Source: an uncultured Gammaproteobacteria bacterium
Lineage (GTDB): Bacteria > Pseudomonadota > Gammaproteobacteria > Legionellales > Legionellaceae
Reading direction: 5' to 3'
DNA length: 64,000 bases
Assembly: GCA_963785145.1 (NCBI GenBank)
Contig: CAWAUF010000015.1
Coordinates: forward strand, 14,120 to 78,119
Shown here: one piece after another, positions 31,863 through 54,368 of the stretch
Position numbering within the stretch: the stretch's first letter is position 1
Layout of the letters: each line of letters begins with the position of its first letter
Program-made: the position numbers and the translations under genes
The notes under the pieces: generated by a model
Seen by the model: only the letters and a program-made list of their open reading frames with translations
Told to the model about the DNA's origin: nothing
The model's database searches: none

Positions 31863-32199
31863 TTAGATGGATTTTAAAGTGCCTTTTGGCAATACGCTAA
31901 CCACTGCATTTTTCTGCAGATTGATCTCTACCCCTTCGGCAAGGCTTACCTTCATGTATTGATCATCCAAGCTTACAATTTTAGCCAACATGCCACCGGA
32001 GGTGATGATTTCATCGCCTTTCTTGAGGCGGTTGATGAGAATCCCTTTGTTCTTTAGCTCGTTTGTTTTGAGGTCTAATCAACATAAAATAAAATAAAAC
32101 GAAGATGCCAGCTATCATGATCAGTGAGAAAGAACCATCTGATTGAGCTGCTGGGGTGTTGTTCACTGCAGCAACTGCATCGCTTATAAAAAAACTCAT
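31863..32199 (-). CDS. yajC: Preprotein translocase subunit YajC (frameshift near 32040)
   Basis: The N-terminal TM helix plus RPQNKRAKEQRD is in one frame. The remainder (GDEIITSGGMLAKIVSLDDQYMKVSLAEGVEINLQ...) reads in a second frame. Confidence 0.7.
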
Positions 32200-32455
32200 A
32201 TCATCTCCTGATTGCCATTAATTAACTTGAATTTCGTGACATCATATAGTGATTTTCAACGAAGGTAAATGCAAAGACCTAACATCCAAATTAAAATGTA
32301 ATGGATGTGCCCAAGTACATCAAAAACATCCAGTCGAATGATTTTTTATTATCCTTACAACATAAAATTTTTCTATTTTGATTGATTTGTTTCGTCTATT
32401 GCAATATATTTGCCGCCTGCAATTTTTTACAATTAACCATCCAGGAGTTTTACTA

Positions 32456-34396
32456 ATGCGACGTCACTTAGAACAAAAAATGGAACCCACAAAAGCACCA
32501 CACCTCATGTCTCATATCATTCCAGAACATCAAGCCGCCGTAGTGGTTGCAGAAATGGATAGAAAGGAAGAGGAAGAAGAGCAGTTTGCGAAATATGGGG
32601 AAAAATACGCAAAATCCAGTGATGATCATTGGTTGGATAGGCATGGTGAAAACATAGCTCCAGAATTGGCTGAATTTTGTTTAAATCCAGAACAAAGTCG
32701 ATCTTACTATACTCGAAAAACAGTAAGAGACTGGTACGATCTTCGTTTATCGGCCAACCCTGCTAGCTTAGAACCCAATACCATTTATTTAAGTGCGGAT
32801 CCGCAAAATAAGATTCAATACACCCTATTGGATATGAATGGTCATCGAGTCACCGCAAGTACTTCCATTTTGGTCGAATCTCATGAATTAACCATGCGCC
32901 AAGCCATTCGCATGAAAGACGAGGTATTGAAGGCAGCGATTCAAGCAAAGCAAATCCATGCCTCACCTTATGAATATTACGAAGGCATTCCCTGTGCAAC
33001 TTTGGTGAAATCCAGATTTGGAAATGAACCGGACATCGTTGTTCCAGAAGGACAGGTGGGTTTGGCTTATCATCAGGGCAAACCGGTATTTTTAGCACCC
33101 GGATCTTATATGCTATCCCCAGAGTATACCCTCCCAATTGAACCTCAGCCAAGGCTAGTAGCCACCACCAATAAGCACATTACGCATGGCACCATGCACA
33201 TCATCCGCGTGGAAGGTCAAGCGATGTGGCAGGTGACTGATCCGACTAAAATGGACGATTTTAGAATTTTAACTCAAGGCACGCATGTGATTGAGCTGCC
33301 CTCTGGAACGGTGAGAGAAGTTCAAGACACCAGCAAGCAAGTGTTGTGGGTAAAAAACGATGAAAAAGAAGCGGTTAAAAAGCCTGATGTCAAGCCAGAG
33401 GTGAAAGCAGAAAAGCCAAAAGAAGAAGAAAAAGTTCCTGCAGGACGTAAGCCTGGTCGAGTCATCTTTGTAAAAGTGCCCCAAGGAAAGGTAGCGGTTT
33501 GCTATGACAATGAAGGTCAATTGCGCATATTGAAGCCTGGAATGTTCTATCTCCCACCTTCTTGGACTTTCTACGATTATATTTCTTATAAAAAGAACAT
33601 TGAAAAGGTACGATTGGAAAGCATCAAATCCAAAGACAACATCACCTTCGATGTCGAAGCCCACGTCCGATATCAGATCATCGATCCATACCATGCGGTT
33701 AAAGAATTTGGTCCCAATGGGATTTATAAAGCCATCAAAGATTCCGCTGCAGAAGCCGTGAAGTTGGATTTCAATGGCAAATCCATTGTATTTAATAATC
33801 AAGCCCAATTCGATGCCTGTGTGCCTGCCCCGGCTTATCAGGATTATCAAGAACCACCACCCGATTACGATGGATCCAAAGCCGTACAAAATATGAATGC
33901 GCAATTGGAAGAAGGCAAGGTCAAAATTCATAAGGTCTCCATTATGAAATACACCCCTTCTCATCCTGCGGTTCTTAAGGCAATTGAAGAAGCCTCTGCA
34001 GTCCGTGTCAATTTAGGCAAGGCAAAAGCAGAACTGGAATCCATGAAAGTGTGGACTCAAAGCCAAGAACTTACAATTGCCTATTTGAGAAAACAAGGCG
34101 AAGTAAGAACCTTGGAATTTGCAGAGACTAAAGCCCAATGCAACCTGATGCTTGAGGTAGCGAAGGCTGCTGTAGAAACAGCAAAAATTCTCAACACCAC
34201 TCCTGGTGCACGTGAAATCTTCAACAGACAGATGCCACCCAAAACAGGACATGCTCAACTTCCAGATGCATTCTTTAATCAAGGAAATCCCCAGGCTGCG
34301 CCGCGTGCCCCAGAACAAGCGGCTGGAAATCAGGCAGTCAAGGTGCATTTACCAGACCAAGATGCCGGAAAAGGAGCCCAACAATCCTTCAGGTAA
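32456..34396 (+). CDS. Large SPFH/band-7-like domain protein, paralog 1 (effector-like)
   Basis: AGGAG RBS 10 nt upstream of the ATG. VPEGQVGLAYHQGKPVFLAPG and a second GKVAVCYDNEGQLRILKPG...ITFDVEAHVRYQIIDP segment resemble SPFH cores. Has a KPEVKAEKPKEEEK linker. Confidence 0.4.
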   Translation: MRRHLEQKMEPTKAPHLMSHIIPEHQAAVVVAEMDRKEEEEEQFAKYGEKYAKSSDDHWLDRHGENIAPELAEFCLNPEQSRSYYTRKTVRDWYDLRLSANPASLEPNTIYLSADPQNKIQYTLLDMNGHRVTASTSILVESHELTMRQAIRMKDEVLKAAIQAKQIHASPYEYYEGIPCATLVKSRFGNEPDIVVPEGQVGLAYHQGKPVFLAPGSYMLSPEYTLPIEPQPRLVATTNKHITHGTMHIIRVEGQAMWQVTDPTKMDDFRILTQGTHVIELPSGTVREVQDTSKQVLWVKNDEKEAVKKPDVKPEVKAEKPKEEEKVPAGRKPGRVIFVKVPQGKVAVCYDNEGQLRILKPGMFYLPPSWTFYDYISYKKNIEKVRLESIKSKDNITFDVEAHVRYQIIDPYHAVKEFGPNGIYKAIKDSAAEAVKLDFNGKSIVFNNQAQFDACVPAPAYQDYQEPPPDYDGSKAVQNMNAQLEEGKVKIHKVSIMKYTPSHPAVLKAIEEASAVRVNLGKAKAELESMKVWTQSQELTIAYLRKQGEVRTLEFAETKAQCNLMLEVAKAAVETAKILNTTPGAREIFNRQMPPKTGHAQLPDAFFNQGNPQAAPRAPEQAAGNQAVKVHLPDQDAGKGAQQSFR

Positions 34397-34402
34397 AAAA
34401 GT

Positions 34403-34428
34403 AGGTTGGGCCTTGGCCCAACTTTTTA
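34403..34428 (+). terminator. GC-rich palindromic hairpin GTTGGGCC-TT-GGCCCAAC followed by a T-run (probable terminator, also a dispersed repeat)
   Basis: Lies 7 nt after the stop codon. A related palindrome sits at 34436-34455, and the same core recurs at 54000-54037. Confidence 0.5.
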
Positions 34429-34486
34429 AAGAATATTGTTGGGCCAAGGCCCAATTTACTCTAAATTATTCAATTAGGAGATCTAT

Positions 34487-36928
34487 ATGCCTGGAGCGAA
34501 AATGAATCATGAGGATTTTGCAAACTATGGAAAGGATCATGCTGTCTCTAAAGACAATCATCAAGCGGCACGATTTTCGTCCTTTATAACCTCTGAAATG
34601 AGGCCTTTTTGTTTTAATCCAAAAGAAAGCGAAGCCTATTTTCGTTTTTTAACATACGACCTGGAGGTATTTCCAACTCATCAAATGGAGCCTGAGGAAA
34701 AGAAAAGTTCCTTTTCTATGGTTAAAGAACGCACACTGTATTTGTATGTATATAAAAAAACAGAGCATGCAGAAGAGCATGCCGCAAAGGCCATCGAGTA
34801 CCAAATGCAGCTGCAAGAATTCAATGCAATGATTGCAGAGAATAAAAACCAACTTGCAGAGCTCAGAGCTCAAAGAGAGGATGTAGACAGATACCTCGAT
34901 GCACACAGACCTCGTGCTCCCGAGCCTCTTTTTGAGGACCACATTCAATACACGCTGTTAGACTCTGCCGGAAAGTTGGTGCATGGTAAAACAAAATTAG
35001 GCTTAACGGGTATAAGTCCCACGTTCACTTTAAACCAATTAAAACGTTATTTTGCAGAATTTAAAGTGCAAATCATTCAAGAAGCCTTAAGAGCTGATCC
35101 CGGCCCTGCTCTTCAATCCACTTATGAAGGCATACCCATTGAAACCCAAATGCAGTGGACTGAAGCCAGAGCTCGATTAGTAGCCAATGATTCACCAGCC
35201 AGTCAGAAATGGGTAACCGTACCTGAAGGCAGTGTCGGCCTCATTTTAAATCAAAAAAAACCTCAATTCATAGGCCCTGGAGATCACATCTTTACTGCAA
35301 GAGAGCCAGGAGTAAGCTTTGTCAGAATCCAATCCTTAAACCAGATGCATTTTGCACATGGTGACAGACATGTGGTCAAGGTCTTACCTGGGCAATTGAT
35401 TTTCGTGCAGTCCTATGTCATGGGATCAGATGACTACAGGCTATTGACCTCCATGCCAGGTGTTCATGTGTTTGAATTAAGCGATGCCACCATCGTGCCA
35501 GTGAATGATCCCTTTGGTCAGGACATCACCGTGACTTTACCAAGCGGACAAAAACGCTTTTTATTTGCAAAAACCGCTCAAGGCAAAGGCGGCATTCTGG
35601 TGGACAACCCCGAGCGTCTGGTGATGCTGTCTCCAGGTGTGACGCAAATCAGTCCTATAGCACGATTTTTTGGTCGAATTTCGACTAAGAATTCTTTATT
35701 AACTCTAAGCATCAAAGAAGTGAAAGACAAATCTGGTCGACTACTTAATGTGGACAAGGATGGAGTACCCCTACACATTGAGGCCGTGCTTCAATATAGA
35801 CTGATAAAACCCTACAATGCCATCCAGGATTTTTGCAGGGAAACCAGCTATGCGGGCAAGTTAACCATCAATCCAGACAACATCTCCAAACTCATCAAAC
35901 AAGAAGCCACCAAAGAATTGGTTAAACAGATCAACAGCTTCATATCCATAAGAGGCATGGCTTTGAAAAAGGTGGATTACTCTTTTTATGAAGGGGTTAT
36001 TGTCCGAGAAGTGCTGACGGCCTTAAATGAACGCTTGGTTCTTGAAACGAAAACTAAAATCAATGGGGTCATACAAAGCCTTTTAGTCACTTTGAAAAAA
36101 TCAACCGCAGAATCTTTGATCGGTTATGTAGACGATGGCTACCATGACTCGACCATAATCAATCGTCTTAAAAGAATTGTATCTCAAGGTCAGTTTGATT
36201 CCAATAAAGTAGAGGAGCTTGTTCCCGATTTAAAGACATTGGCGAGATTAGAGCCTGAGGTTCGATACGTACGCGATAGATATCAAGCTGTACAACAATG
36301 GGAGCTGGATACGAATAAGGATGTGATTGCTCAAATCAATTCAACCATAGAGGACTTAAGGAAACCACTCAATAAAGCTTTAATAACCAGTCTCATCGAT
36401 ACCTTGAGCAATGGCATACTCAACCCAGAAACCTTAAAAAGCTTGTATAAAAAGCTCAATCAACCCAACATCACCCGCGAAGTGGTTCTTTCAATCATTG
36501 ACGATTTAAGACAGGTAGAAGGAATAGCGCATACGGTGGTTAGTAAATTGACCATCACCACTTTAAAACCCTCTGATCCGAGAATGGTAGACGAGCTCGA
36601 AAATGCCTCAGCCCAAGCCATCACCCAGCATTCCAACGATCATGTGAAAACCAGCATGGTAGGCAATGAAAAAATGGACTTGATGCTCAAGGCACAACAG
36701 CAAGAAATTGAAAGACTGAAAAGAGATTCTGAAGAACTCTCAAAAGCAGGAGCTGCTTTGTTGGCTAACACAAAAATGGAAGTGGCTAAAATGCTGGAAG
36801 GAACTCCGGGAGCTGCGCAGATTTATGCAGCCAGCCTGCCATTGGTGAGTCAAAACAAAGACACCTTTTTCTATCCTCAAGACGAGGCAGCAGAGCAAAG
36901 TCTTTTATCTTTCCAACTTGGAAGTTAA
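34487..36928 (+). CDS. Large SPFH/band-7-like domain protein, paralog 2 (effector-like)
   Basis: N-terminal 300 aa collinear with paralog 1 (FANYGKDHAVSKDNH, FCFNPKESEAYF, IQYTLLDSAGKLV, YEGIPIETQ, VPEGSVGLILNQKKPQFIGPG). Long C-terminal helical region. Confidence 0.4.
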   Translation: MPGAKMNHEDFANYGKDHAVSKDNHQAARFSSFITSEMRPFCFNPKESEAYFRFLTYDLEVFPTHQMEPEEKKSSFSMVKERTLYLYVYKKTEHAEEHAAKAIEYQMQLQEFNAMIAENKNQLAELRAQREDVDRYLDAHRPRAPEPLFEDHIQYTLLDSAGKLVHGKTKLGLTGISPTFTLNQLKRYFAEFKVQIIQEALRADPGPALQSTYEGIPIETQMQWTEARARLVANDSPASQKWVTVPEGSVGLILNQKKPQFIGPGDHIFTAREPGVSFVRIQSLNQMHFAHGDRHVVKVLPGQLIFVQSYVMGSDDYRLLTSMPGVHVFELSDATIVPVNDPFGQDITVTLPSGQKRFLFAKTAQGKGGILVDNPERLVMLSPGVTQISPIARFFGRISTKNSLLTLSIKEVKDKSGRLLNVDKDGVPLHIEAVLQYRLIKPYNAIQDFCRETSYAGKLTINPDNISKLIKQEATKELVKQINSFISIRGMALKKVDYSFYEGVIVREVLTALNERLVLETKTKINGVIQSLLVTLKKSTAESLIGYVDDGYHDSTIINRLKRIVSQGQFDSNKVEELVPDLKTLARLEPEVRYVRDRYQAVQQWELDTNKDVIAQINSTIEDLRKPLNKALITSLIDTLSNGILNPETLKSLYKKLNQPNITREVVLSIIDDLRQVEGIAHTVVSKLTITTLKPSDPRMVDELENASAQAITQHSNDHVKTSMVGNEKMDLMLKAQQQEIERLKRDSEELSKAGAALLANTKMEVAKMLEGTPGAAQIYAASLPLVSQNKDTFFYPQDEAAEQSLLSFQLGS

Positions 36929-36938
36929 TCCCTTGTAG

Positions 36939-37590
<652 letters not shown>

Positions 37591-37597
37591 TTACAAT

Positions 37598-38938
37598 CTA
37601 AAGAATGTAACGCGCCAAATCTTCATCTGCAACCAATTTGCCTAGATTTTTTTCAACATAGGCTTTATCAATGTGCACCTTTTCGCCGGATTTATCCGTT
37701 GCTTCAAAGGAAATCACCTCCAATAAGCGCTCCATGACCGTATACAACCGCCTTGCCCCGATGTTTTCCGTACGCTCGTTGACCTGCCAGGCCACTTCGG
37801 CAATGCGCCTGATTCCAGTGGCATCGTAGGTTAATTCAAGTCCTTCTGTTGCCATCAAAGCGGCATATTGTTCGGTTAATGAGGCTTTGGGTTCGGTCAA
37901 AATGCGCACAAAATCTTCTACGGACAGTGCGGATAATTCCACCCGAATGGGCAATCGACCTTGCAACTCGGCAATTAAATCCGAGGGTCTGGACACATGA
38001 AAAGCGCCGGAGGCGATGAATAAAATGTGATCCGATTTCACCATGCCGTATTTGGTGGAAACCGTAGTGCCCTCGACCAAGGGCAACAAATCGCGTTGCA
38101 CTCCCTCGCGCGAAACATCTCCACCGCCTGCGTTTTCAGCGCGCCTTGCGACCTTATCCAATTCATCAATGAAGACGATGCCGTTTTGTTCCACGCTTTC
38201 AATGGCTTTGATTTTGATGTCTTCTTCATTGATTAATTTACTGGCTTCTTCTTCGCGCACGATTTTCATGGCTTTGCCAATGGTCATTTTACGAGTTTTG
38301 GTTTTATGCGACCCCACCTGTTGGAACATGGACTGCAATTGATTGGTCATCTCCTCCATTCCCGGAGGCGCCATGATTTCAATGCCTACGGGCATGGCAG
38401 TGACATCGATTTCAATTTCTTGCTCATCCAGGGTGCCTTCACGCAACTGTTTGCGAAACACTTGCCTGGCTGCAGAGTCTTTTTCTGCCTCGGAAACGCC
38501 TCGAGCCGGAGGCAATAAAATGTCTAAAATTCGATTTTCTGCAGCATCTTCAGCCAAATGGGAGACTTTTTTCATTGCCGATTCTCGTTCTTGTTTGATG
38601 GCAATGTCTGTCAAATCCCGCAATATGGAATCCACGTCACGCCCCACATAACCCACTTCGGTGAACTTAGTGGCCTCCACTTTAATAAAAGGTGCATGGG
38701 CCAGCTTGGCTAAACGTCTTGCAATTTCGGTTTTACCCACACCGGTTGGACCTATCATCAAAATGTTTTTAGGCATGATTTCATTTCGCAAGACTGGATC
38801 TTCAATCCTCATGCGACGCCAACGATTTCGCAAGGCAATGGCAACGGCTCGCTTTGCATCGTCTTGCCCGATGATGTGTTTGTCTAATTCTTGGACGATC
38901 TCGCGGGGAGTCATCACCATGTTATTGTTTACTGTCAT
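37598..38938 (-). CDS. hslU: ATP-dependent protease ATPase subunit HslU
   Basis: Walker A ([17 protein letters not shown]) and [20 protein letters not shown]. Confidence 0.95.
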
Positions 38939-39473
38939 TGGTTAATTCTTCTATAGTTAGATGGTTGTTGGTGTAGATGCAGATCTCACCTGCGATGGCT
39001 AATGCTTTTTGAACGATGTCTTTGGCGGATAATTTGGTGTTCCTAAGCAAAGCCCTGGCCGCAGCTTGTGCATAAGGTCCACCTGAGCCGATAGCAATCA
39101 ACCCTTCTTCTGGTTCAATGACATCTCCATTGCCAGAGATGATCAAAGAAGCCTTGGAGTCGGCTACAGCCAGGATCGCTTCTAACCGGCGCAATATTTT
39201 ATCTGTGCGCCAATCTTTGGCCAGCTCCACTGCAGCACGCACCAGATGGCCCTGATGCATTTCCAGTTTGGCTTCGAAACGTTCAAACAAAGTAAAGGCA
39301 TCCGCAGTCCCGCCAGCAAAACCGGCAATCACTTGATCTTTATACAATCGCCTGACTTTGCGGGCATTGCCTTTCATGATGGTGGCCCCCAAACTAACCT
39401 GACCATCTCCACCTATGACCACATGATTTCCTCGTCGAACCGACAGAATGGTTGTACCTCGATATTGTTCCAA
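38922..39473 (-). CDS. hslV: ATP-dependent protease subunit HslV
   Basis: N-terminal TTILSVRRG with the catalytic Thr. Overlaps hslU. Confidence 0.95.
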
Positions 39474-39552
39474 TTTAAAACCTCTATTGATGCTAAAAAT
39501 GGATAAATGGGGGCAGGTTATTAAAAATCAATGGATGACAGGAGAAAAAAGA

Positions 39553-40773
39553 TTAAAGAAAAGACAACCCTTGAGACAAAGGCGATATTCCCAAATGCTC
39601 AGCAATGCTTTGACCTACGTCGGCAAAGGTATCCCGACGACCAATGAACCGTCTTTTTATTTTTGGGCCGAAAACCAATACTGGAATATGTTCTCGAGTA
39701 TGATCCGACCCTGGAAAAGTGGGATCACAACCGTGATCAGCAGCAATCACAACGAAGTCATCCATCTTAAGCAAGGCTTCCAGCTCGGGAAGCCTTGCAT
39801 CAAAGGCTTCCAATGCATGAGCATAACCTGCCACATCACGTCTGTGTCCATAAGAAGAATCGAAATCAACGAAGTTTGTAAAAACCAGCCCGCCGGCTGG
39901 AAGATGACGGAAAGTCTCCAAAGTAGCATCCATCAAGGCCTGATTGCCATCTGCTTTGATGTTTTGCGTCATGCCCTGATGCGCAAAAATATCCGCCGTT
40001 TTCCCTATGGCTATCACTTCTCTTCCCGACGCTTTTAAATGATCAAGCAAGGTTTCTTCTGGCGGAGGCGTGGAATAATCCCTACGATTCCCAGTTCGTT
40101 TAAAGGCACCCGGCTCACCGATAAAGGGGCGTGCTATCACGCGACCGATTTGATATTCGTCCACCAAAGTGCGAGCAATCTCACACAAAGAATACAAGTT
40201 TTGTAAACCAAAACGCTCCTCATGGGCGGCTATTTGAAACACGCTATCGGCCGAAGTATACATAATGGGCTGACCGGTACGAAGATGCTCTTCTCCCAGC
40301 TCTTCTAAAATAGTCGTTCCAGAGGCGTGTTTTTCACCTAGAACTCCCGATAAGTTGGCTAGTTGTATTAAGGAATCGATTAATTTTTTTGGAAAACAAG
40401 AGGGTTGGTCTGGAAAATAACCCCACTCAAATAGCACCGGTACACAAGCGAGCTCCCAATGCCCACTGGGGGTGTCTTTACCCAAGCTGCGCTCCACAGC
40501 ATAACCATACAAAGCTTCAGGCTCAGACAGTGTGGACAAATCAATGCAACTCATTCCCGAACTTGAAACCAGGGCATGATATAGCCCCAATCGACTGAGA
40601 TTAGGAAGTACCAATGGGCCCTGTCTTAGTCCTGCTTTATCCGCTTTCCCCTCCATGCAGTACTCATAGATGTGCCCCAGCGTATTTGCACCTTCATCGC
40701 CATAATGAGCCGCATCCAGACTAGCCCCAATGCCTAAAGAATCCATCAGCAAGATGCAAACTCGACCCGCCAT
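39553..40773 (-). CDS. deoB: Phosphopentomutase
   Basis: Collinear with E. coli DeoB (LDSLGIGA...GANTLGHI...DTPSGHWE...[21 protein letters not shown]...ADHGCDPT). Confidence 0.9.
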
Positions 40774-42050
40774 TAATGCTCAACCCGATTGCAATGGGTT
40801 TCTTTTAAACCCAAAGTCATTCCCAGGGCAATGATCAAACCGATGGGTAAAATCAATGCGGCATGCTGATAAGCTGCCAAATGATACACAGGAACCTCCT
40901 GAATCACATGCATGCTCCCATAACGAGTCAACAAGATGCTGAAGAGGTTTTGATACACCAGATAACCGCCTTGAGTCAAAATGGAGATGAGGCTAATCGC
41001 AGTAGCAGTCAGCAAAGGCGAGCTGCTTTCGGCAACCAATGCGTAGCTTATGACTTGAGCCGAAGTAAAAAAGCCGAGTAAAAAAAACAACACCGTCATC
41101 TTTGTCAAAGAAACAGGCAAATAGAGAATGGCAACAAGAATCAAAAAAGACAGAATGGCGCCCACTTTCATGGGCAAAACCCGTAAACCCACTTTGTCAG
41201 AAATCCAACCCACCAAAGGTGATCCAATGATGGCTCCTAAAAACAACATGCCGTTGACCATAGCGGCTTGTTCGGTTTGAATGGGTAAACGTTGTTCCAA
41301 ATAAAGGGTACCCATCATGGCACCAAAAACTGCAATGGCCATATTCATTAAACTGGTGTATAAGGCTGCGCGAAAAAATTGAGTATTTAAATAGGTGTTC
41401 CCAAAGGCTTTGGTTAGGGTCATGGAGTGGCCTGATCTTCTGGGTGCAGTGGGGTTTTCTTGGATCCAAAAAAACATGACAACCAGCATGACTAAGCCAA
41501 GCAAACCCACATCCAAAACCGCTTGACGCCAACCCACCAAAGCCACCAACTTGGTTAAGGGATATTGTGCCAACATGCCCCCTGTCATTGCCATGGTGAC
41601 GATGATTCCAGTGACCAAAGCCATGCGTTTGGGAGGAAACCATTGAGAAGCTAGGCGCACTGGGCCTAAAAAGCAAAAGGCACCACCAATACCAGTAACG
41701 AAACGACAAATCAAAGCCACGTAAAAAGAATCGGAGGTGGCTAAGAGAAAGGTGGAGGCCACACAAAGGGACATGGCAATGAGAATGGTTTTCTTAATGG
41801 AGAATCTATCGAGTATGATTCCAGCCACGAATAAAAACAGGACATTGGATAAATAATAGCTGCTGGACAGATAGGTCATCTTATCCGCTTGGATATGATA
41901 AGCCTGCATGATGTTGGATGCAATGGAAGCAAACATGTTTCCTTGAATGAATTCATAAAAGAAAAACAAGGTTGCTGCAAAACAAACCATCCAGGGTAAG
42001 TATGAAGAATAAGCCTCCGTATCTTGAATCTCATGAGCCACCGGATGCAT
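40773..42050 (-). CDS. MFS transporter (Legionella Pht phagosomal-transporter-like), tandem paralog 1
   Basis: 12-TM MFS architecture; paralogous to the adjacent gene. Confidence 0.6.
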
Positions 42051-42052
42051 TC

Positions 42053-43327
42053 CTACTCCTCAACTAGTCGCTTGCAATGGGTTTCTTTAGTCACACACAC
42101 TGCAATTAAAGCCGCAAAGGCCGCGATGGGAAACATCCACATGGCAAATTGAAAATCCACCACCGTGTAATTGGTCAGGGATGGACCCGCATGCTTGGCC
42201 ATCAACCAGCCAAATAAAACTTGTCCAACGCCTCCACCGCCCATGATGATGACAGAAGCAATCCCAGTGGCAGACCCAGTGTTTTCGCGACGATTGCTTT
42301 CAGCAATCAATGGATAAGAAATAACTTGGGTGCTGGTAAAAAATCCGAGTGCGAAGAAAATAATGCTCAAGGTGAATTGGGTCAATGCAAGGTCTAAAAA
42401 CAAAGGCATGGCGGTGACTAAAGTGGCTACAGCACCTGCTATCATGAGGGGTTTACGCTTACCACTGACATCCGACAACCAGCCAATCAAGGGACTGCCG
42501 ATGATAGACCCCATAAAAATCAAACTCACCACATTACTTGCTTGGATGAAACTTAAACGATGAGCGATTTCAAGATAATTGGTCCCCCACAAGGCGCATA
42601 AAACCATGATAGGCAAATTAAGAAAGGACGTATAACAACCGGCCAACCAATTTTGTGAATTGGTCAAAGCACGCATGAATCCTAAACTACGGCCCTTGCT
42701 GAATTGAAGCGGCAATTGGCTGGGTTGATCTTGAACAATCGAATAAATCCAAACCAACAACAAGCCACCGACAGCACCGTCAATCAACAAAGCAGTACGC
42801 CACCCATAAAGCTCATTCAAGTAGGCAAAGGGCGTATGCGCCAACATGCCTCCAATGAAAGCCATGGTCACCACGGATCCAATAACCAAGGCCTGCCTTT
42901 TCGGTGGAAACCATCGAGACACCAATACCACGCAAGATAAAAAGCAAAAGGCATTGCCTATGCCGGATAAAAAATGAAAGAAAGAAGCCAAGAGAAAGGA
43001 TTCCGTGCTGGCAAAACCGATAGTCCCTAATACACAAACGAATAAGGCGGTTAATATGACTTTTCTGGTGGAAAAACGGTCTAAAATAAGACCGGCAGGT
43101 AGAAGAAATAAAATGTCTGCCCATAAATAAGCACTGGACATCCAGCTTAATTGAGTGGCATTGATGTGATAGGCTTCGCGTAAGGGCTGGTTGATGACAT
43201 CGAAAATATTGAGTTGAAAAAACTCATACATGAAAAAGAGCCCGGCAGACAAACAGACAACCCAAGCCATGGAGTCATTCCGGGCAACAAAGTAACTGGA
43301 ATCCGCAACAGAACCTGACACTGGCAA
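42053..43327 (-). CDS. MFS transporter (Pht-like), tandem paralog 2
   Basis: 12-TM MFS. Shares motifs with 40773-42050 (RFSxxKxxxxxxxxxxxxT, WFPPKR). Confidence 0.6.
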   Translation of the reverse strand: MPVSGSVADSSYFVARNDSMAWVVCLSAGLFFMYEFFQLNIFDVINQPLREAYHINATQLSWMSSAYLWADILFLLPAGLILDRFSTRKVILTALFVCVLGTIGFASTESFLLASFFHFLSGIGNAFCFLSCVVLVSRWFPPKRQALVIGSVVTMAFIGGMLAHTPFAYLNELYGWRTALLIDGAVGGLLLVWIYSIVQDQPSQLPLQFSKGRSLGFMRALTNSQNWLAGCYTSFLNLPIMVLCALWGTNYLEIAHRLSFIQASNVVSLIFMGSIIGSPLIGWLSDVSGKRKPLMIAGAVATLVTAMPLFLDLALTQFTLSIIFFALGFFTSTQVISYPLIAESNRRENTGSATGIASVIIMGGGGVGQVLFGWLMAKHAGPSLTNYTVVDFQFAMWMFPIAAFAALIAVCVTKETHCKRLVEE

Positions 43328-45880: not shown

Positions 45881-47530
45881 CTATTTTGCCCAAGTGTCTT
45901 TTAAATCAACCACACGATGAAAGGCTTGTACCTGCCCATCTGTTTGTGCATTCACACAATAATAACCGAGACGTTCAAATTGAAAAACCTCGCCACAATC
46001 TTGTTTTTCCAAAGAAGGTTCACAATAAGCGGTCAGTGTTTGTAACGAATTATGATTTAAAAACTGTAAAAAATCGTCCTCTCGCGCAGGATTTGGATCA
46101 TTGAACAATCTATCGTATTGATACACAGTGACCGGCTTTGCATGCGCACAAGAGACCCAATGAATAACTCCCTTCACTTTACGCCCCTCAGGATTTTTAC
46201 CCAAGGTGTTTTCATCATAGGTACAACGCAACTCGATGATTTCCCCTTGAGGATTGCGCACAATCTCATGGCATTTGATCACATAAGCATAGCGCAAACG
46301 AACCTCTCCCCCCAGGGTTAATTTAAAAAATTTCTTAGACGCTTCTTCCATGAAATCGGAACGTTCAATGAATAATTCTCTAGAAAAAGGCAGGTCACGC
46401 TTTTCAGACTCCGGATCTTGTGGGAAAAAGGGACATTTCAGAGTTTCGGTTTTCGATTCAGGATAGTTTTCCAGGATTATTTTGAGAGGATCCATCACGC
46501 AAAAGGCACGCTTGGCGGTTTTATTCAACTCCGCACGCACGCATTCTTCGAATAAAGACATCTCAATGACTGAATCACTGCGCGATATGCCTATCATCTC
46601 ACAAAATTGTCGAATGGCAGCAGGCGGATAACCTCGTTTTCTCATGCCACGTAAAGTAGGCAATCGAGGATCGTCCCAGCCAGAGACGATGTTTTTCTCC
46701 ACCAATTCTCGCAATTTGCGTTTGGAAGTCACGGTGTGGGAGAGATTCAACCTTGCGAATTCCGTTTGAATGGGTTTTGCCGGTAAAGGCAAATGATCAA
46801 CCAACCAATCATATAAAGGCCGGTGATCTTGAAACTCAAGGGTGCATAAGGAATGCGTGATTTTTTCCAGGGCATCTGAAATCGGGTGGGCATAATCATA
46901 CATAGGATAAATGCACCATTCATCTCCAGTGCGTTGATGATGTGCATGGCGTATGCGATACAAGACTGGATCGCGCAGGTTGATATTGCCCGATTGCATG
47001 TCAATTTTTGCTCGAAGCACATGAGTGCCGTCGGAAACTCACCAGCTTTCATCCGTTTGAATAAATCCAAACTTTCGTCCATGGACCGATTGCGATAAGG
47101 ACTGTCGCGACCAGGTTCTAATAAATTGCCTCTATGGGCACGAATTTCGTCCATACTCAGACTGTCCACATAAGCCAAGTTCTTTTGAATGAGCACAATG
47201 GCCAGATCGTACAGTTCTTGATAATAATCCGAGGAATGCGTCAGTGCACGTCCATTCAAAACCCAACCAGCGCACATCATCTATGATGGCATTGACGTAT
47301 TCTTCCTCTTCTTTGATGGGATTGGTATCATCAAAACGCAACAAGCAAGTGCCTGAAAACTCTTCGGCCAAACCAAAATTGAGACAAATTGATTTTGCAT
47401 GTCCAACGTGCAAATAACCATTGGGTTCTGGCGGGAATCGGGTCACTATGGCTTTATGTTTGCAATTTGCCAAATCGTCTTTAATCAATTGTCTGATAAA
47501 ATGTGGGCGTTTTTCAATTAAGTCGGTCAT
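45881..47530 (-). CDS. glnS: Glutamine--tRNA ligase (reading frame broken twice, near 47130-47280 and 46750-47020)
   Basis: Three consecutive ORFs (47132-47530, 46747-47280, 45881-47020) are collinear with GlnS; HIGH motif HVGHAKS is present. Confidence 0.8.
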
Positions 47531-48344
47531 GCTGTTGTTCCATTGTTATCGATTGCAACTCGCATCGAGTTGATCAGAGTGACACCTGCTTGAAGTGGGT
47601 TTCCATCGCGTTCATAGCTCTCAAAAAGTTGATTGACTAAGGCTGCACCTACTATAACACCATCCGCAAAACTTGCAACCTTTGCAGCCATTTCGCCTGT
47701 TTTAATGCCAAATCCGACCATCAAGGGCAGTTTGGTTTGCGCCTTTAATTGCAGGTATTGCGATTTTAATGAGTTGATGTCCAGCGAATCGGCACCGCTG
47801 ACTCCTTTTAAGGAGACATAATAGAGATACCCTTCGGCCATTTGATTGATCAAAATCATGCGTTCTTGAGTAGTGGTGGGTGAACACAGATAGATGTTGT
47901 ACAGGTGGTGTTGTTTCCAGATTTTTGCGACCTCAGTACTTTCTTCTGGTGGGAGATCCACGAGAATGGTCCCATCGACGCCTGCATCAACAGCCTCTTG
48001 GGCAAATCCATCGTAGCCGTATTGTTCAAGGGATTCACATAACTCATGAGAATAAGGGCTGTGTGTTGATCCTGTTTGCGAAACTCTTTGACCATCTCCA
48101 AGACATCTTGGCAGCGAATGTTGTGGCTTAAAGCACGTTCCATGGCATGCTGGATAACCGGGCCTTCTGCCATGGGATCGGAAAAGGGAATGCCCAACTC
48201 TAAAACATCCGCTCCGGCTTCAACCAAGGCATGCATGATGTTGACCGTGAGGTTCGGATGCGGATCCCCTGCGGTGATGTAAGGGCTTAGCATTTTTTTC
48301 CCACTGACCTTTAATTCTGACAAAATAGTATCAATTCGATTCAT
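47527..48344 (-). CDS. trpA: Tryptophan synthase alpha chain (frameshift near 48080)
   Basis: ORFs 47856-48344 and 47527-47961 correspond to the TrpA N- and C-terminal halves. Confidence 0.75.
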
Positions 48345-53999: not shown

Positions 54000-54037
54000 T
54001 TATATTGTAAGTTGGGCCTTGGCCCAACTTACAATAT
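54000..54037. repeat. Perfect 38-bp palindrome TATATTGTAAGTTGGGCC-TT-GGCCCAACTTACAATATA; probable bidirectional terminator and REP-like dispersed element
   Basis: Its core GTTGGGCCTTGGCCCAAC is identical to 34407-34424. A second hairpin (CAAGCAG-A-CTGCTTG) follows at 54043-54057. Confidence 0.5.
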
Positions 54038-54368
54038 AAACAGCAAGCAGACTGCTTGTAAAAGCAATTCATATATTGTAAATTCGAGATTAAACTTCGA
54101 AAATTCAAGCTAAAAAGAGGGTAAAAAAATCGGCTTTGAATTTAAATACATAGATGCTCCTAAGAGAACCCATCCATGCGCATTGCCAGTGACACCCTAA
54201 AGTTGGATCATTTATATTTAGTTTATCCTGGTCAGCATACTTTTCCACTAGCCGAAGGTATGACCGCATTAGGTATTGAGAGCTCATAAGGGTGGAGCCT
54301 GGGCCCATAGCCGTCAGTTGAGTAGGTTTGCCGGGTAACTCAACAGATCTACTCAAACCTCCAGTTCT

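Follow-up and report, generated by a model that had tools for sequence, protein, structure and literature searches.

The locus studied here raises the question of what two large, adjacent, and anchorless proteins of the SPFH (stomatin/prohibitin/flotillin/HflK-C) superfamily might do for a Legionella. Their genes, gene A (32456..34396, plus strand; an open reading frame (ORF) of 646 aa) and gene B (34487..36928, plus strand; an ORF of 813 aa), lie on a 64-kb stretch of contig CAWAUF010000015.1, which we call the window and whose numbering is used below. A preliminary description made from the sequence had presented them as large SPFH/band-7-like paralogues arranged in tandem. We find that A and B represent one rare branch of the SPFH superfamily and appear to have anciently diverged from each other. 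Our leading explanation, still a tentative one, is that the two proteins form a heteromeric SPFH/vault-like cage, perhaps a substrate of the Dot/Icm secretion system that would be translocated into an amoebal host and assemble there.

Results

A tandem pair of predicted SPFH paralogues

Gene A has an AGGAG Shine-Dalgarno sequence at 32443..32447 (plus strand) with its ATG 8 nt downstream, and gene B has one at 34476..34480 (plus strand) with the ATG 6 nt downstream. A longer, TTG-initiated version of gene A could begin at 32378, but translation more likely starts at the ATG that follows the Shine-Dalgarno site. The A protein is one residue shorter than the 647 aa originally given, while the 813 aa given for B were correct. 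BLASTP aligned the two proteins with 28% identity across 362 aa (E=3e-31) and matched an additional N-terminal segment (E=6e-9), and a four-sequence alignment was collinear from an N-terminal 'YG..YA.S.DNH' region to a C-terminal 'TPGA.EI[FY]...FF.P' motif. By these comparisons A and B are real paralogues with a homology far beyond chance, and B, the B-type paralogue, is homologous to A, the A-type paralogue, along its whole length and has the same domain order, so that both the tandem paralogy and the collinear architecture described at the outset are borne out. The long divergent helical C-termini that had been proposed need revision: the helix is present, but the ends do not simply diverge, as the last SPFH strand, the long helix, and the end motif all align between the two proteins. 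The extra length of B is mainly a helical insertion near the N-terminus (approximately residues 66-145) and about 200 aa within the SPFH region.

Similarity to the SPFH superfamily was found by profile search, so that the outcome named beforehand as refuting the description, a lack of such similarity, did not occur. Pfam Band_7 (PF01145) matched A at 38.8 bits over residues 340-514, above the curated cut-off of 23.6, and in B the first half of the SPFH domain (residues 380-485; 35624..35941, plus strand) gave a sub-threshold match over a stretch that aligns with A 356-436 by BLASTP. A profile of the family, run against all PDB sequences, matched QmcA (1e-13), P. horikoshii stomatin (2e-11), HflC (1e-10), and human stomatin (1e-9), and HflK and erlins were also among its matches. 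An AlphaFold2 model of A, built on a 40-sequence alignment from an exhaustive search, reached a predicted local distance difference test score (pLDDT) of 78, with values >90 at residues 70-300, 335-445, and 475-570; it replaced an earlier run on a 3-sequence alignment that was unusable (pLDDT 47). In this model, A is predicted to have the SPFH alpha/beta fold. Membership in the HflK/C group was rejected, as at E<=10 the NCBIfam HflK/HflC equivalogs gave no match to A and only noise for B, and neither ftsH nor hflX is linked to the pair.

Extra SPFH1-like repeats and a vault-like domain order

An exhaustive HMMER search of 1.84 billion representatives returned 239 matches at E<=1e-3, many of which covered only profile positions ~187-280 and did so several times per protein. 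An iterated hidden Markov model (HMM) of this segment converged on a 55-aa unit with the consensus HIIRVPEGEVGLAWDNGKPVILGPGRHVLNSPTFKFVGFVSLNQEVIQHGTITIV and detected 586 units in 153 proteins, with up to 9 per protein. In A, unit 1 (residues 194-250; 33035..33205, plus strand) scored 51.9 bits, and its beta strands are modeled with pLDDT >90. Unit 2 (residues 251-300; 33206..33355, plus strand) is degenerate, with 8 bits at 269-296 and six beta strands in the model, and unit 3 (residues 339-380, plus strand; 29 bits) coincides with the first strands of the Band_7 match. Units 1, 2, and 3 of B, all on the plus strand, lie at residues 241-297 (35207..35377; 47.0 bits), 295-330 (3 bits), and 366-406 (8 bits).

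These units change the meaning of one of the two motifs by which the genes had been recognized. Both motifs are present: the first, VPEG.VGL...GKP.F..PG, occurs as VVPEGQVGLAYHQGKPVFLAPG in unit 1 of A (195-216) and as TVPEGSVGLILNQKKPQFIGPG in B (242-263), and the second is ITFDVEAHVRYQIIDP, located at A 396-411. The first motif had been taken for an SPFH core. Since the repeat HMM also matches the start of the SPFH domain of A, we read it instead as an additional, SPFH1-like copy of the ~55-aa beta unit with which this domain begins.

The model of A begins with a family-specific N-terminal region (residues 34-163; 32555..32944, plus strand) in which short helices are followed by a beta-beta-beta-alpha module. 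Two beta units (~172-300) come next, and then a K/E/P-rich linker (residues 301-333; 33356..33454, plus strand) that has a pLDDT of 53-62 and aligns with a gap in B. The SPFH (Band 7) domain (residues 334-501; 33455..33958, plus strand) starts with the third repeat copy and has a disordered insertion at ~445-473; it leads into a single 78-residue helix (residues 504-581; 33965..34198, plus strand), the predicted equivalent of the SPFH coiled coil and the vault cap helix, and the region of B aligned to this helix is present. The protein ends in a disordered tail (residues 593-646; 34232..34393, plus strand; pLDDT <50) with a short conserved 'AV.[VL]HL' motif common to A, P0002, P0006, and P0007; the tail is a candidate cap strand and/or secretion signal. 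The N-terminal region had no Pfam or NCBIfam match at E<=10. Its module follows the pattern 'IYL..g.I.YT...G....T...P.PFT..L..K..IL..A..aGH', which is conserved in family alignments, and is found in 2-4 copies in the relatives P0007, P0008, and P0009 and also in an accessory protein (L085:12310-13605).

When the model of A was used as a Foldseek query, the top seven matches were all the major vault protein (MVP), with E values from 1e-11 to 4e-10 and ~445 aligned columns, compared with 260-330 columns for the other SPFH proteins in the list. In MVP, nine repeats (R1-R9) homologous to SPFH1 precede a shoulder that equals SPFH2, a cap helix that equals the coiled coil, and then a cap disk (PMC12915596). 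A and B have this domain order with 2-3 repeats instead of 9, and the resemblance is architectural, not one of family membership. True membership in the MVP family was rejected, as there were no matches to the Vault models and the similarity to the MVP sequence is marginal (E 0.045). The Vault and MVP_shoulder models of Pfam also had no match to the many-repeat relatives at E<=0.01.

The family is rare and is kept as a tandem pair

A word-index search of 5.8 billion clusters with A as the query found A itself and one 47%-identical protein (P0002), and with B it found only B itself. It was the exhaustive HMMER search that revealed the family, with 12 representatives below E 1e-30 among the 1.84 billion; a 16-sequence word-index profile had been swamped by low-complexity candidates and missed known relatives. 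The names of the relatives in the databases say nothing beyond 'hypothetical', 'Band 7', or 'HflC-like'. No relative was found in a genome contig collection scanned with the family alignment, in a metagenome contig collection scanned with a 5-sequence alignment, or in a viral contig collection scanned with P0023. The first of these negatives also indicates that GTDB does not use the source genome as a species representative.

A tandem pair was present at seven of the eight loci with a readable context. Besides A and B in the window, the pairs are A' and a truncated B' (L002), P0008 and P0007 (L003), P0010 and P0011 (L004), P0012 and a 610-aa member (L086), P0013 and a 563-aa member (L087/L088), and a 561-aa member and P0006 (L089); the eighth locus, L085, has a single gene (P0009). 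The partners of a pair are only 24-30% identical. In a neighbor-joining tree, a crude one without support values, the L086 genes were split between the two types, the second grouping with A and the first with B, and therefore the duplication would predate those lineages; this suggests that the A/B split is old and that the gene order is not fixed. The L003 and L004 pairs clustered within their own locus in the same tree. The flanking genes were different at every family locus, and an ankyrin-repeat protein adjoins the L004 pair.

The A-B spacer in the window is 90 nt long and contains an intercistronic hairpin (34400..34460, plus strand) that was flagged in a terminator-like scan. It has a 23-bp stem and a 15-nt loop, with a folding energy of -43.4 kcal/mol (z -8.76; not matched by any of 200 shuffled sequences), and each arm of the stem holds the palindrome TTGGGCC(TT/AA)GGCCCAA, with T5 after the first. 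In L002, the closest relative, another hairpin occupies this position (z -5.3), and the more distant pairs have none, so that the element is not family-wide.

Several further genes were observed at the other loci. Three distant loci (L003:160-1134, L004:2396-3283, and L085:12310-13605) have a flanking small protein in which a charged coiled coil is combined with a hydrophobic hairpin rich in Cys; these proteins share a weak homology (E 1e-7 to 1e-3, computed against a very small database), and no counterpart was found in the window. In two unrelated loci, the second gene downstream of the SPFH genes encodes an AAA_14/DUF4143 ATPase (L085:14178-15344 and L087:12297-13517), and the toxin-antitoxin genes VapBC, PIN, and ParE lie near several pairs; both suggest variable-island settings.

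Lack of an anchor, C-termini, and source of the pair

The maximum 19-residue Kyte-Doolittle hydropathy was 0.73 for A and 1.14 for B, and the scan revealed no transmembrane segment, signal peptide, or hydrophobic N-terminus in either protein. The 'secreted-type' character first attributed to the pair is thus not visible in the sequence, and because a signal peptide and a transmembrane segment are lacking, any export of A or B would need a type IV system. We take the SPFH proteins with solved structures that were matched here to be membrane-anchored throughout, with the exception of MVP.

The Dot/Icm system is conserved in Legionellales, and its C-terminal signal combines an acidic E-block at about -10 to -17, small polar residues, and a hydrophobic residue near -3. 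The C-terminus of B, ...PQDEAAEQSLLSFQLGS (also given as DEAAEQSLLSFQLGS), has acidic residues at -15 to -11 and hydrophobic ones at -3 and -5. In a comparison by eye B seems to fit and A (LPDQDAGKGAQQSFR) to fit partially, and the C-terminus of B may resemble a Dot/Icm signal.

HslU encoded in the window is 82-88% identical to that of named Legionella, Fluoribacter, and Tatlockia species. The Legionellales origin assumed in the preliminary description is borne out by the 88% identity to Legionella species, and on this sequence evidence the source is a Legionella. The pair has yajC-secDF on one side and wrbA-hslUV on the other. The block MFS-MFS-deoB-hslV-hslU is common to ~19-24 Legionellaceae loci and wrbA to 14, and A and B occur in none of the Legionellaceae loci that share the hslVU block or wrbA. 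Since these loci hold neither A/B nor a nearby yajC-secDF, the pair lies at a synteny break. It is, as first proposed, no housekeeping feature.

Discussion

A and B are closest, by sequence and by rigid-body comparison of the fold, to the stomatin/QmcA group (PF01145; P. horikoshii PH1511, human stomatin, and E. coli QmcA), with which they share an SPFH domain followed by a long helix. They differ from this group in lacking its N-terminal transmembrane segment or hairpin and its NfeD partner gene, in being 2-3 times larger, in occurring as tandem pairs, and in having two extra SPFH1-like repeats and a novel N-terminal region of ~130 aa. The genes hflK and hflC are adjacent. HflK/HflC, flotillin-1/2, erlin-1/2, and prohibitin-1/2 each combine two diverged SPFH paralogues in one heteromeric cage (PMC12915596), and A and B are likewise a diverged pair, but those proteins are membrane-anchored, whereas A and B have no anchor and have the extra repeats and the N-terminal module.

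MVP is soluble and anchorless, and its order of beta repeats, SPFH2 shoulder, long cap helix, and C-terminal closure is that of A and B. An MVP repeat has about the same length as the ~55-aa unit. A and B have 2-3 units against the nine of MVP, although their relatives have up to 9; the SPFH domain is nearer to stomatin than to the MVP shoulder, and MVP is a homo-oligomer where A and B are a tandem paralogue pair. The vault partners vPARP, TEP1, and vault RNA are missing from the window: a scan of ten further ORFs showed no PARP or TROVE domain, and Rfam at gathering thresholds found no RNA family (tRNA, riboswitch, or small RNA) in the 64 kb. Bacterial MVP homologues, found by BLAST with human MVP at >50% identity, are reported from Myxococcales, Cytophagales, and Oscillatoriales in the accessible part of a preprint (bioRxiv 10.1101/872010). 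In layout they are similar to A and B, with a band-7-like domain and a coiled coil in addition to repeats of the vault type, but as described in that part they are true vault-repeat proteins from other phyla, with no description of tandem pairs there, while A and B have no detectable vault-repeat match.

A and B resemble Legionella Dot/Icm effectors with eukaryote-like domains in their Legionella host, lineage specificity, large size, coiled coil, and low-complexity linkers; they have no Sec signal and have eukaryote-associated relatives, and the cluster look-ups gave no homology to a described effector. What is new is the combination of a vault-like repeat architecture with conserved pairing. 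It is a variant within the SPFH superfamily and no new kind of system, and we came across no account in the literature, for Legionella or elsewhere, of SPFH proteins that lack an anchor, bear such repeats, and come in pairs.

SPFH cages (HflK/C, flotillin, stomatin, erlin, prohibitin) enclose membrane patches, and to our knowledge the vault is their sole membrane-free relative. SPFH proteins assemble laterally into rings or domes, and most of the complexes are heteromers of two paralogues, such as HflK/C, flotillin-1/2, erlin-1/2, and PHB1/2, with stomatin and MVP as homomers (PMC12915596). Because the pairing of two diverged paralogues with an identical domain order is so strongly conserved, we hypothesize that A and B likewise co-assemble laterally into a mixed ring or dome, whose wall and roof would consist of the long helices, with the C-terminal motifs as the closure at the top and the extra SPFH1-like units lengthening the cage wall. 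The hairpin at 34400-34460 might tune the A:B ratio. The effector part of this hypothesis is the weaker step: A and B would be accessory substrates of Dot/Icm, and their assembly would take place in the cytosol of the amoeba or at the membrane of the vacuole, where the cage could be a scaffold that organizes membrane or sequesters a host factor. We propose this step because the proteins have neither an anchor nor a Sec signal, the host is a Legionella, the family is extremely patchy, an ankyrin-repeat protein neighbors the L004 pair, a eukaryotic-type Ser/Thr kinase is encoded upstream in the window, and some relatives come from a marine eukaryote transcript catalogue or from contigs that look like giant viruses or protists. 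Listeria is said to recruit host MVP through InlK and so to evade autophagy, a case of an intracellular bacterium that benefits from a coat of the vault type.

A number of results weigh against a cage that is injected into the host. On its own, B stayed just under the Band_7 cut-off (20.5 bits, E 5e-4); Pfam Vault (PF01505) and MVP_shoulder (PF11978) had no match to A or B at E<=10; the repeat profile matched no PDB sequence at E<=10, MVP included; and the marginal similarity of the family profile to MVP is confined to the shoulder and cap helix. The G+C content of the pair, 41-43%, is the same as that of its surroundings and therefore gives no sign of recent transfer, and the other family loci sit among Gram-negative (gammaproteobacteria-like) housekeeping genes (lpt, mla, fts-mur, and flagellar). 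The genes of the window that were examined included no dot/icm gene, and we assume that the source has a Dot/Icm system solely because of its taxonomy. The proposal that homologues might be found in Legionellales effector sets was not supported: no homologue is named as an effector in the cluster look-ups, to which curated effector databases did not belong, and the searchable literature held no effector with an SPFH domain and nothing linking Legionella to anchorless or SPFH-domain effector proteins. A many-subunit cage formed after unfolded translocation is plausible, and we know of no precedent among Dot/Icm substrates.

Several of these points suit a cage that stays at home. The same heteromeric assembly could work inside the bacterium, as a soluble shell or peripherally docked on the inner membrane, and hold or sequester a client protein of the bacterium in the way that HflK/C acts on FtsH and QmcA on YbbJ; docking might occur via the N-terminal modules or a partner protein. 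We regard this as a real possibility and as nearly as likely as an effector cage. The bacterial SPFH complexes with solved structures among the PDB matches all act in the bacterial envelope, the housekeeping genes at the other family loci have no secretion genes nearby, the native G+C content is joined by strong Shine-Dalgarno sites and an operon-like layout, and the coiled-coil/hydrophobic-hairpin protein of the three distant loci could be a membrane adaptor. That adaptor-like gene is not present in the window, however, and A and B, unlike HflK/C, QmcA, stomatin, and flotillin, have no transmembrane segment or hairpin. A gene for NfeD, FtsH, or another known client is not adjacent (hslVU is near in this genome only), and a family so extremely rare and patchy is more easily reconciled with an accessory gene for host interaction than with a physiological scaffold. 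It is also conceivable, although unlikely, that there is no joint cage and that A and B are redundant or sub-functionalized paralogues that act alone, as homo-oligomers or monomeric adaptors, with the tandem arrangement as a footprint of duplication. Homo-oligomers are formed by stomatin and MVP (PMC12915596), only one copy is present at L085, the pairwise clustering of the L003 and L004 copies suggests repeated local duplication, and the strong hairpin with its T-run could uncouple the expression of A and B. Yet the retention of both genes at nearly all loci despite the low identity of the partners argues for selection on both, the A-type and the B-type clade each extend across different loci, between which the gene order is swapped, and heteromers are the rule for paired SPFH paralogues (PMC12915596).

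A broader version of the injected cage would make A and B members of a cross-kingdom class of anchorless 'mini-vaults' with 2-9 SPFH1 repeats, intermediates between stomatin-type SPFH proteins and MVP; the Legionella pair would be injected into the amoeba and self-assemble there into a vault-like cage, with which a part of the host cell would be coated or compartmentalized. The hosts of such a class would be intracellular bacteria, giant-virus- or protist-like contigs, and protist transcripts. P0037 is from a marine eukaryote transcript catalogue, the distant relative P0023 (815 aa; L090:621-3068) has 8 SPFH1-like repeats and an SPFH domain and lies on a contig that looks like giant virus or protist, and P0046 lies among ORFans on an ORFan-rich contig of the same appearance. 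We consider this version improbable. On the contig of P0023, a WGR-PARP_reg-PARP gene (L090:5601-7360) was observed 2.5 kb away, which recalls the partnership of MVP and vault PARP, and a gene for an FNIP-repeat protein is near.

The variable neighborhoods raise a further alternative, which we judge very unlikely: that the pair is cargo of a variable island and serves inter-genomic conflict, for example as a phage-defense or abortive-infection module with an SPFH scaffold. VapBC, PIN/HTH, ParE, and AAA_14-DUF4143 ATPases near the relatives are typical of variable islands, but the neighbors change from locus to locus, the window has no integrase, tRNA, or mobile-element gene beside the pair, and Pfam and NCBIfam detected no enzymatic effector domain in A or B. 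Defense-system and phage readings were rejected, as nothing matched the 5027 PADLOC defense models or PHROGs. A functional link to the adjacent hslVU protease was also rejected, as hslVU is nearby at no other family locus.

If A and B do form a heteromeric cage, they would be a small and tractable model for how repeat number and heteromeric pairing shape cages and for how vault-like shells arose. Should the cage prove to be a substrate of Dot/Icm, it would be, to judge from the literature found, the first SPFH-type effector, and an example of a pathogen supplying its own scaffold rather than hijacking host flotillin or vaults. Were they neither cage nor effector, they would still represent a new anchorless architecture in a well-studied superfamily.

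Genomic surroundings and intergenic signals

Upstream of the pair, the region 20614-28071 of the window resembles a cluster of accessory or effector genes. It encodes a 604-aa protein with a double HIT-like (PF22088) domain, two ORFans without a Pfam match, one of 811 aa (22367-24802, minus strand) and one of 458 aa (25139-26515, plus strand), and a eukaryotic-type Ser/Thr protein kinase of 310 aa (27139-28071, plus strand), 4 kb upstream of the pair. The kinase, the double HIT-like protein, and the large ORFans are typical Legionella accessory gene content. On the other side, the block of two MFS transporter genes, deoB, hslV, hslU, and wrbA (36958-43327 in the window, compared with L005-L028) is conserved in Legionellaceae, but its hslU-wrbA spacer ranges from ~10 bp to >6 kb between species, and therefore this junction is a recurrent insertion site.

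Three minus-strand genes of the window, secF (29059-29986), yajC (31866-32217), and glnS (45884-47545), are each split across two or three reading frames. Indel errors of the assembly are a likelier cause than genuine pseudogenes because two of the three are essential genes. As such apparent frameshifts mean that the assembly may carry indel errors, it matters that positions 32154-35281 are 100% identical to another pipeline's assembly (Logan) of run ERR11523676.

The region had been described as bounded by GC-rich palindromic terminators. This holds in part: the strong hairpin lies between A and B and a weak one past B, but there is nothing comparable upstream of A, where inspection by eye revealed nothing convincing as a PmrA or CpxR site. 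The weak hairpin (36939..36967), CCCGCAU...AUGCGGG followed by AUUUUC, lies between the convergent genes B and wrbA and folds with -18 to -20 kcal/mol (z -1.3); it is possibly, on weak grounds, a terminator shared by the two genes. The palindrome GTTGGGCCTTGGCCCAAC and its AA-loop variant occur at 34405-34422, 34439-34454, and 54011-54028, with 4 matches against 0.14 expected. The copy at 54011-54028 is inside a 40-nt perfect palindrome (54001-54040) just past an ORF. This recurrence of the core indicates a reused terminator-like element, and the palindrome may be a species-specific element of the repetitive extragenic palindromic (REP) or terminator type.

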